Shown in pieces: positions 3,827 through 5,156 of a stretch of DNA of 6,788 nt. The stretch lies in IMG/VR virus record IMGVR_UViG_2724679544_000004. One strand, given 5' to 3'. Position 1 is the first letter of the stretch. The number at the start of each line of letters is the position of its first letter. A program made the translations under genes and the position numbers. A model generated the notes under the pieces. It did not search any database and was not told the DNA's origin. It saw nothing but the letters and a program-made list of their open reading frames with translations. This stretch comes from a virus. Lineage: Duplodnaviria; Heunggongvirae; Uroviricota; Caudoviricetes.

Positions 3827-4876
3827 TTACCCAAGCACGCCAGTTGCAAAGGCGTGATCAAGAAAACGAAAAATTAAATCAACCTGAGAACCATGCTTTT
3901 CTTCGAACGCCAGAGGATCCGCATGAAGCTCGTTGTGATGCTCCCGACACAGCGGTAGCGTGAAAATATCGTGAGATTTTGTCCCCATTCCGCCCTGACC
4001 ATGACCAATCAGGTGATGGGGATCGTCGGCTGGCTTACCACAACACGCACACGGCTGTGTCTTCACCCAGCGTTTGTATTTCTCGTTAACCCAGCTGCGA
4101 CGTTTAGGTCGTTTCATGAAAGATTCCGGAGACTCAGGATCAACGGCAATGCTGACCACCGTCTTTTCCTGTTGTGGGTTCTGTTGCTGGTGGGCGTGAG
4201 GCAGCGGCGCAAGATTTTTTGTGCGCTGTTTCAGTATGCTGGTGGCGGTCTGCTCTCCCGGTACGATGTCGCTTTCACGGTACATTGAGCGGATTTTTTC
4301 CGCACGCAACCCCAGCGAACGACGTAATACCGCTTCCGGTAGCGCGTCCGCCACCTGATTGCGGACCGCCCACCAGGATAATTCAGCTAGAGATAATTCA
4401 CGCTCCTGCGTACCGCTTATTGCGTGACCGATGACGTCAATCATCCATGCTGACAGGTTTTGATGAGCAAGTTGCTCGAGTGATTCGGATGTCTGGTCAC
4501 GCAACTGGTTGTCGCAGTGCCAGCACAACACCATTGCGCCGGTACCATAACGGTGAATGACGGTTTCGCTGTGATGATAATCGCCGTGTGGCCACTGGCA
4601 GGATTTAATATGGCGCAACAGCCAGTCAGACAATGCGCCAGCACCACCAGCAGCACGAATCACCCGTGCGTTACTGAAAAACGGCAGCAATGTTTTGTCT
4701 TCCACCAGCGGCTGGCGAACGGCAGGAACGACCCCGGACGGCAGATTACGCATGCTTTTCGGTTCCGGCTCCACCAGTAACCGGGTATTGTGGAATACCG
4801 GCATGGATTCACGACCGGGCTTAAGGACCACCAGCCCGAGTTCCGGAACCAGAACAGGTCGAAGTAATACCCGCAC
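3827..4876 (-). CDS. ydfU: YdfU-like DUF968 prophage protein (349 aa from a GTG start; alternative ATG at 4802-4804)
   Basis: Same length and gene context as the E. coli K-12 Qin protein YdfU; C-terminal Cys/His cluster (CACCGKPADDPHHLIGHG…CREHHNELH) suggests an HNH/zinc-finger-like module. Confidence 0.85.
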   Translation of the reverse strand: MRVLLRPVLVPELGLVVLKPGRESMPVFHNTRLLVEPEPKSMRNLPSGVVPAVRQPLVEDKTLLPFFSNARVIRAAGGAGALSDWLLRHIKSCQWPHGDYHHSETVIHRYGTGAMVLCWHCDNQLRDQTSESLEQLAHQNLSAWMIDVIGHAISGTQERELSLAELSWWAVRNQVADALPEAVLRRSLGLRAEKIRSMYRESDIVPGEQTATSILKQRTKNLAPLPHAHQQQNPQQEKTVVSIAVDPESPESFMKRPKRRSWVNEKYKRWVKTQPCACCGKPADDPHHLIGHGQGGMGTKSHDIFTLPLCREHHNELHADPLAFEEKHGSQVDLIFRFLDHAFATGVLG

Positions 4877-4877
4877 G

Positions 4878-5156
4878 TTACCTCCAGATCCGTTGCTGGA
4901 ATGTGCGGGACGGACGCGGTGGCTGTTCGGAGTAAGGGAGCCTGACGGAGATTATCCAGTGACGGTAGTCGAGGCTAAGGGCTTTTTTAACCTCGCATCC
5001 GCGCCTGCGGTAACACTGAATGAGCCATTCGGCCTGTTCTTCAGTGCATGAGGGATGCTGGTACCAGTCTGACTTAAATGCGTGAGAATACCGCTCGTGC
5101 GTGTGGGCAAGAACGGTCGAATTATCATGATTGTAATATTTTGCGTTGCGTGCCAT
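4878..5156 (-). CDS. Hypothetical nin-region protein (92 aa), translationally coupled to the ydfU-like gene
   Basis: ATG at 5154-5156 with SD GGAG about 7 nt upstream; TAA stop lies 1 nt from the ydfU-like start; contains His/Cys residues (AHTHERYSH…C…C…C). Family not recognised; could correspond to a rem-like gene. Confidence 0.55.
   Translation of the reverse strand: MARNAKYYNHDNSTVLAHTHERYSHAFKSDWYQHPSCTEEQAEWLIQCYRRRGCEVKKALSLDYRHWIISVRLPYSEQPPRPSRTFQQRIWR

Follow-up and report, generated by a model that had tools for sequence, protein, structure and literature searches.

The DNA analysed here (the window: 6,788 nt, one strand, 5' to 3', IMG/VR virus record IMGVR_UViG_2724679544_000004, Caudoviricetes) carries on its minus strand an open reading frame (ORF) of 92 codons, followed by ydfU, a gene for a 349-aa protein, and then by rusA and the gene for a Q-type antiterminator. 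Our subject is the likely function of YdfU and its relation to the small protein encoded upstream. The 349-aa protein is an allele, 86% identical, of the equally long YdfU of Escherichia coli K-12 (b1560, prophage Qin, PF06147), which also has a GTG-type start and is the product of a very common prophage gene. Block 3400-5500 of the window matches E. coli chromosomes at 98.4% identity; of 5,426 complete E. coli genomes, 2,203 contain 80% of it or more. Because of that identity, together with the 100% identity of the 92-aa protein to a partial protein of Shigella flexneri, the window is assigned to a Qin-type lambdoid prophage of Escherichia/Shigella.

The 92-aa ORF starts with ATG, has GGAG 7 nt upstream and stops with TAA at 4880-4878; base 4877 is the sole spacer before the GTG of ydfU, as an earlier reading of the letters without database searches (the sequence-only reading) had pointed out. 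The junction reads TGG-AGG-TAA-C-GTG, and the GGAGG Shine-Dalgarno sequence of ydfU, which is 5 nt from the GTG, falls within the closing Trp and Arg codons of the preceding ORF. The form CTGGAGGTAA[C/T]GTG is identical in all seven Escherichia/Shigella loci that were fetched, and both ORFs and these motifs are far beyond chance expectation. Judged from this arrangement, ydfU would be translationally coupled to the 92-aa ORF. The same reading had placed ydfU next to rusA in a nin-type region, and indeed rusA and Q follow on the same strand, which also carries hokD, relBE and rem.

A predicted HNH nuclease domain in YdfU

The 349-aa protein matches the Pfam family DUF968 with 254.2 bits against a cut-off of 27.8 (E = 8.3e-76), residues 160-346 spanning the whole model (positions 1-171 of 171), and matches PHROG 96, 'HNH endonuclease', over its full length (E = 1.8e-173). 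A CxC…HH…C…HH…H pattern had been noticed in its C-terminus from the sequence, and the residues can be named: C276-x-C278-C279, H287-H288, C310, H313-H314 and H318, all conserved in homologue alignments. In 58 Enterobacterales homologues (43-97% identity) the putative active-site and zinc residues are mostly invariant, position 313 being His or Cys, and D303 in the same domain is invariant. The AlphaFold2 (AF2) model, which used 59 database-derived homologues at 50-97% identity and has a mean predicted local distance difference test score (pLDDT) of 72.6, consists of a confident N-terminal domain (residues ~60-190), a low-confidence linker (195-260) and a confident C-terminal domain (261-349). 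Structure prediction had been suggested in the sequence-only reading as a check on the nuclease, and the predicted C-terminal domain has the ββα-metal fold of the His-Me finger/HNH superfamily. A sequence search of the PDB gave one chance zinc-finger match for YdfU and nothing for the 92-aa protein.

Roles can be proposed for these residues by comparison with Gp16 of the Staphylococcus aureus phage ΦNM1. The YdfU profile aligns with Gp16 with an hhalign probability of 95.6% (E = 1.3e-8, 37% identity over 65 columns). C276, C279, C310 and H313, the predicted zinc ligands, align with C145, C148, C181 and H184 of Gp16, and H287-H288, H314 and H318 align with its H157, H185 and H189, so placing H288, H314 and H318 as the predicted catalytic or metal-binding residues. 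Gp16 itself matches HNHc_6 (PF16784) at 4.9e-117 and reaches 29.1 bits with DUF968, above the 27.8 cut-off, and many close homologues of YdfU carry a precomputed PF16784 match. The YdfU profile also resembles residues 91-148 of Ref from phage P1 (PDB 3PLW; probability 75%, E = 2.6e-5).

Experimental work published in 2026 (PMC12817073) describes Gp16 as a nickase that is stimulated by host RecA, to which it binds, blocks host replication, is needed if the phage is to propagate efficiently and is toxic on over-expression; the zinc-site substitutions C148A, C181A and H184A abolish its effect, and H185A and H189A weaken it. The equivalent residues of YdfU (C279, C310, H313, H314 and H318), plus H288, which corresponds to Gp16 H157, are all present. 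The HNH domain of YdfU thus looks catalytically competent, and its assignment as a nuclease domain is a well-supported prediction. The description of the family as functionally uncharacterised, given in the sequence-only reading, holds for YdfU itself, on which we found no experimental paper, and fails for the wider family, of which Gp16 is a member.

The HNH reading of YdfU is already in print. Jablonska et al. 2017 (PMC5714182) placed DUF968/YdfU and DUF1364/YbcO in group 7 of the His-Me finger proteins, listed RusA and Q as neighbours and proposed a role in recombination or repair akin to that of NinG and the RecA-dependent nucleases, and Curtis et al. 2014 (PMC4118853) described for DUF968 an HNH zinc finger and fusions to recombination proteins. 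In some database entries, P0157, P0159 (607 aa) and P0180 (447 aa), YdfU is fused to RusA or the Q antiterminator, but a frameshift or read-through in the gene call is a more probable source of these than a true fusion.

The N-terminal part of YdfU is less easily placed. Residues 2-135 match PHROG 11007 (unknown function), and Pfam searches with the first 160 residues from each of 10 diverse homologues gave only noise at E ≤ 10. In the AF2 model residues 60-190 are confidently folded as helices plus a β-hairpin and helix, and they hold a second Cys/His cluster, C93-Q94, H101 and C118-x-x-C/H121-D122-N123-x-x-R126, in which C93, Q94 and C118 do not vary among the same 58 sequences and conservation of H101 is 90% or higher. 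By DSSP on the model, the β-hairpin (105-110, 113-118) ends, and a helix (119-125) begins, at the second cysteine pair. This local arrangement is that of a treble-clef zinc site, a feature common to the ββα-metal nucleases, and the cluster could represent a treble-clef zinc module or else a degenerate ββα unit. An internal duplication, with this module as a second HNH copy, found no support in the sequence comparison (hhalign probability 0.4%, only LCxxCDNxL being aligned with LCxxHHxEL); because there is no significant profile similarity to the C-terminal HNH, we describe it only as a possible zinc module.

The linker has pLDDT values below 50 for residues 195-213 and 221-260 and is probably disordered, to judge from the model. 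In it, just before the HNH core, runs the acidic-basic motif DPESPESFM-x-RPKRR-x-W (residues 246-262), which is near-invariant and among the most conserved parts of YdfU. The NinB/Orf-like N-terminal domain that goes with the HNHc_6 architecture is not found in YdfU, and since its N-domain is not NinB-like, its architecture differs from that of the Gram-positive Orf-HNH proteins. The N-terminal Cys/His cluster, the distinct N-domain and the linker motif seem not to have been reported before.

The 92-aa gene and the order of genes around ydfU

The 92-aa ORF is a real gene under purifying selection: enterobacterial phages conserve both its length and its sequence (33-47% identity), and comparisons of E. 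coli and phage alleles give pairwise dN/dS values of 0.07-0.35. Its product matches PHROG 1212 (unknown function; E = 3.5e-35) from residue 27 to 92, against positions 1-66 of 66, and matches no model in Pfam, NCBIfam or PADLOC. The family is small: when 1.84 billion cluster representatives were scanned exhaustively with HMMER, only 54 clusters had members. Most of them are 66 aa long and align to residues 28-92, so the protein of the window represents an Escherichia form with a 26-residue N-terminal extension. Residues 1-26, the Escherichia-type extension, are disordered, and residues 28-75 form a predicted β-α-β-β core that had no informative structural match.

Annotation of the gene is uneven. 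In K-12 MG1655 an intact 92-codon ORF lies between rem and ydfU (NC_000913.3, ~1644306-1644584) and is un-annotated there; the Prokaryotic Genome Annotation Pipeline (PGAP) calls it in other strains. In some phage records, such as ON470619.1 (3001-3279 of locus L084), a homologue of the 92-aa protein is labelled 'toxin to Rem', a label for which we found no basis. Phage N15 has an un-annotated ORF similar to the family (NC_001901.1, 35939-36151; tblastn E = 6e-5), flanked by the Q-like gene 40 and by gene 41, which is annotated as an exonuclease subunit.

The 1-nt gap had led the sequence-only reading to propose that the two genes form a functional pair, with conservation of the pair across prophages as a check. 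Such a pair could be a dedicated two-component unit, the small protein serving as regulator, inhibitor or immunity factor, or specificity subunit, and coupling fixing the ratio of the two products. The junction favours this view, the gap and the Shine-Dalgarno sequence within the upstream ORF being kept in 7 of 7 Escherichia/Shigella loci, and an inhibitor is made plausible by the toxicity of the relative Gp16 on over-expression (PMC12817073).

From the YdfU side, however, the pair finds no support. Our sample comprised 80 full-length YdfU loci of Enterobacterales, one genome per species, with 41-94% identity. The gene upstream of ydfU encodes a KilA-N protein in 41 of them, a RusA-like resolvase in 15, a member of the 92-aa family in 7, all Escherichia/Shigella, and various other proteins in the rest. 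Searched with the family HMM, 12 loci have a small-family member within 4 kb of ydfU and 68 have none. Moreover, among the 76 loci with a clear start codon, ydfU overlaps the preceding gene by 4 nt in 45 and follows after a 1-nt gap in 7, the remainder being mostly within 10 nt; since tight spacing is generic, whatever gene lies upstream, the 1-nt gap reflects operon compaction and not a specific partnership. One S. flexneri genome (CP182557.1) even carries two YdfU paralogues (L004 and L012, which share 91% and 53% identity with the protein of the window), one behind the 92-aa gene and the other behind a KilA-N gene.

The view from the small gene is more interesting. Among 73 phage and viral loci, a redundant sample seeded from one 66-aa query, the next gene encodes a RusA-like protein in 58 (with YdfU usually coming after it), NinG in 8 cases and YdfU in 4. 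That a nuclease gene nearly always comes one or two genes after the small gene in the loci inspected is consistent with a dedicated unit, as is the order small gene – DUF968 – Q in E. coli phages HannyBb and 813R8 and in one Klebsiella phage, ST846-OXA48phi9.1. Yet in most viral loci RusA stands between the small gene and ydfU, as in Chris1 (small gene – RusA – YdfU), and the small protein also precedes RusA alone (PHB10: small gene – RusA – Q), YbcO (mEp237 and phiES15: YbcN/DUF1367 – small gene – YbcO-type HNH – RusA – Q) or NinG (Gifsy-1 and SPN3UB: DUF1367 – small gene – NinG – YlcG – Q; GF-2: small gene – NinG), which are unrelated or distantly related proteins. Exceptions are PY54, N15 and Meifeng, Eho59, in which a Dcm methylase and then NinF and NinG follow the small gene, and PhiR46_1, in which an ExoVIII-like gene does. 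Homologues of DinI, which modulates RecA filaments, lie two to four genes upstream of the small gene in several phage nin regions (L086, L088, L159, L160 and L161).

The small family therefore occupies a slot just upstream of the junction-nuclease cassette, whichever nuclease family that cassette contains, a pattern that could stem from inheritance of the gene order or from some general tie with recombination, and that argues against a specific partner of YdfU. In our reading the 92-aa protein is not an obligate partner of YdfU; because the family precedes whichever junction nuclease the phage carries, a function in recombination generally is more likely for it, if it has one, than a function tied to YdfU. 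A toxin-antitoxin or defence reading was rejected, neither the 92-aa protein nor YdfU nor RusA matching a PADLOC or toxin-antitoxin model and NCBIfam giving only a meaningless 12-bit hit. Overall, we consider a dedicated two-component unit unlikely.

Table 1. Features of the window around ydfU, listed in the direction of transcription
Feature	Coordinates	Strand	Basis or remark
relB	6205-6444	minus	
relE	5918-6205	minus	
hokD	5691-5846	minus	
rem, frameshifted	5223-5473	minus	
92-aa ORF, PHROG 1212	4878..5156	minus	
GGAGG Shine-Dalgarno of ydfU	4881..4885	minus	within last sense codons TGG AGG of the 92-aa ORF
ydfU-like gene, 349 aa, GTG start	3827..4876	minus	Pfam DUF968, PHROG 96, K-12 alignment
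YdfU N-terminal domain, ~residues 1-190	4307..4876	minus	AF2
YdfU N-domain Cys/His module, residues 93-126	4499..4600	minus	conservation and DSSP on AF2 model
YdfU linker, residues 195-260	4097..4294	minus	pLDDT and conservation
DPESPESFM-x-RPKRR-x-W motif, residues 246-262	4091-4141	minus	conservation
Predicted YdfU C-terminal HNH/His-Me finger domain, residues 261-349	3830..4096	minus	
rusA, Holliday-junction resolvase, immediately downstream of ydfU	3458..3814	minus	Pfam RusA 1.8e-17, PHROG 34
Q-type antiterminator, end of nin-like region	2622..3443	minus	Pfam Antiterm 6.3e-55

Among the neighbouring genes, rem is broken into ORFs of 41 and 50 aa by a 1-nt deletion in an A7 run at 5362-5367 (A6 in the window versus A7 in strain MLI110), and is either a pseudogene or the product of a homopolymer sequencing error. 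Downstream of the Q gene, three minus-strand segments (1339-1528, 2225-2301 and 2403-2478) hold between them tRNA-Met(CAT), tRNA-Arg(TCT) and the small RNA STnc100 (Rfam, 132 bits), and a 111-aa ORF on the plus strand (978-1313) matches, by position only, the location of the IraM anti-adapter gene of strain MLI110.

Proposed role of YdfU and competing explanations

The explanation that we favour, with moderate confidence, is that YdfU is a zinc-stabilised HNH nuclease or nickase encoded in one operon with RusA, and that the 92-aa protein is a separate, non-obligate product of the same operon. YdfU would be made along with RusA from the early-right (nin-like) operon, and its C-terminal ~90 residues would be the catalytic module, a zinc-stabilised and divalent-metal-dependent HNH domain for nicking or cutting DNA. 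Recognition of DNA or of a partner is probably the task of the basic linker and of the N-domain, with its own Cys/His module. The gene structure, the family, the predicted fold, the conserved residues and the neighbourhood counts come from the data, and from them we infer nuclease activity, substrate, a link to RecA and translational coupling. Analogy with Ref and Gp16 suggests D-loops or RecA-bound DNA of phage replication and recombination as the substrate, with RusA resolving the junctions after YdfU cleavage. As the operon is compact, the 92-aa protein would be translated just ahead of ydfU, the ribosome-binding site of ydfU lying in its last codons. A part in DNA processing or recombination, which had seemed plausible from the sequence, is thus also our best reading, in keeping with the nin-region position, which YdfU homologues occupy beside RusA and/or Q in the 80 Enterobacterales loci, and with the proposal of Jablonska et al. 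(PMC5714182).

Several observations weigh against this explanation. The match of YdfU to HNHc_6 stays below threshold (22.4 versus 26.6 bits) and is local (residues 271-319), and the Ref family PF16786 (RecA_dep_nuc), which Ref itself matches at 2.3e-51, gives no match to YdfU at E ≤ 0.01; for these two reasons the RecA link is a resemblance at the level of the domain only. The N-domain of YdfU is unlike both the NinB-like domain of Gp16 and the disordered tail of Ref, and it is those N-terminal parts that confer the choice of partner and substrate in Gp16 and Ref. A Foldseek search with the YdfU model gave no match in the PDB below E = 1, and the literature searched holds no enzymology for YdfU or any Gram-negative DUF968 protein. 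The redundancy of the viral-contig sample for the small protein, of which 68 loci were seeded from one 66-aa query, counts on the same side. Finally, the prophage may be defective, and because of this and of the frameshift in the adjoining rem, expression of ydfU is not assured.

Rather than serving phage recombination, YdfU could be a host-directed effector or an exclusion gene, nicking host DNA so that host replication stops, as Gp16 does, or attacking the DNA of superinfecting phages. Its nuclease domain is homologous to that of Gp16, an inhibitor of host replication, E. coli prophages by the thousand, a good many of which are probably defective, keep YdfU intact, and ydfU lies near the toxin modules hokD and relBE. 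Nevertheless, YdfU matches no PADLOC defence model, its N-domain is not that of Gp16, and its position is fixed among recombination genes (RusA, NinB/Orf-like, DinI) and not in a moron or defence hotspot. We find this account quite improbable.

A still more doubtful account takes YdfU as a non-catalytic zinc-finger protein with a degenerate HNH used only for binding, either a DNA-binding or a regulatory protein. For some members of the family the annotation reads phage transcriptional regulator (quoted in PMC5714182), the Cys/His module of the N-domain resembles a structural zinc site more, and in Gp16 substitution of the catalytic histidines relieved the phenotype only partially while the zinc ligands were essential (PMC12817073). 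Degenerate HNH domains, however, usually lose the histidines that YdfU homologues at 43-97% identity conserve (H287-H288 at the general-base position, H314 and H318 as metal-binding residues), and the closest characterised relatives of YdfU are active nickases. A terminase-associated HNH aiding cos cleavage and packaging, like gp74 of HK97, is very improbable and was rejected on gene position, ydfU lying between replication/nin genes and Q and not beside terminase in 80 of 80 loci, and the closest relatives being Ref, Gp16 and YbcO, not gp74.

Two bolder ideas go beyond the nuclease that we favour. The PHROG 1212 family could be an unrecognised accessory factor of recombination in lambdoid phages, acting with any junction or D-loop nuclease that is present (RusA, YdfU, NinG or YbcO), for example one that marks branched DNA or restrains the toxicity of the nuclease. 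Separately, the model of the N-domain would allow that YdfU could be a two-module enzyme with a second, cryptic ββα-type site, so that both strands of a D-loop would be cut. The neighbourhood pattern behind the first idea is strong but may be no more than synteny, and the N-module behind the second has a suitable local topology but no detectable homology to HNH. We regard both ideas as unlikely.

For YdfU, an E. coli K-12 "y-gene" without a tested function and with copies in a large fraction of the genomes of E. coli, the HNH nuclease that we favour amounts to a concrete assignment, as a putative Ref/Gp16-like nickase with named predicted zinc and catalytic residues. The small ORF upstream is a real gene, absent from the K-12 reference annotation, and in our reading not a dedicated partner of YdfU. 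These results tidy the annotation and reveal no new kind of system; the leads that they leave are that the small family stands constantly before nucleases of unrelated families, that YdfU has a second Cys/His module and that the K-12 annotation has a gap.

Comparison with known relatives

In Qin of K-12 the 92-codon ORF is likewise 1 nt upstream of ydfU and the rem-hokD-relBE ... Q neighbourhood is shared; unlike in the window, no rusA lies between ydfU and the Q gene. The equivalent position in the nin region of lambda, before Q, is held by Rap/NinG, a His-Me finger nuclease of junctions and D-loops, which in Gifsy-1, SPN3UB and GF-2 stands directly behind the small-protein gene. NinG/Rap (PF05766) has no profile similarity to YdfU (hhalign probability 0.1% versus Gifsy-1 NinG). 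YbcO of DLP12 and phage 82 (DUF1364, PF07102; PDB 3G27) shows marginal sequence similarity (hmmsearch E = 0.052; hhalign 41% with a YbcO homologue) and, with 96 aa, consists of the nuclease core only, unlike YdfU.

P1 Ref lacks a folded N-domain, is controlled by C1 and lies in another genome position than YdfU. The conserved YdfU motif at residues 246-262 nevertheless recalls the basic, unstructured N-terminal tail of Ref, which Ref needs in order to function (PMC4330346). ΦNM1 Gp16 is encoded close to a RusA gene, in a group of early genes for replication and recombination, and has the motif CxxC...H...LCREHHNExH in common with YdfU, residue for residue.

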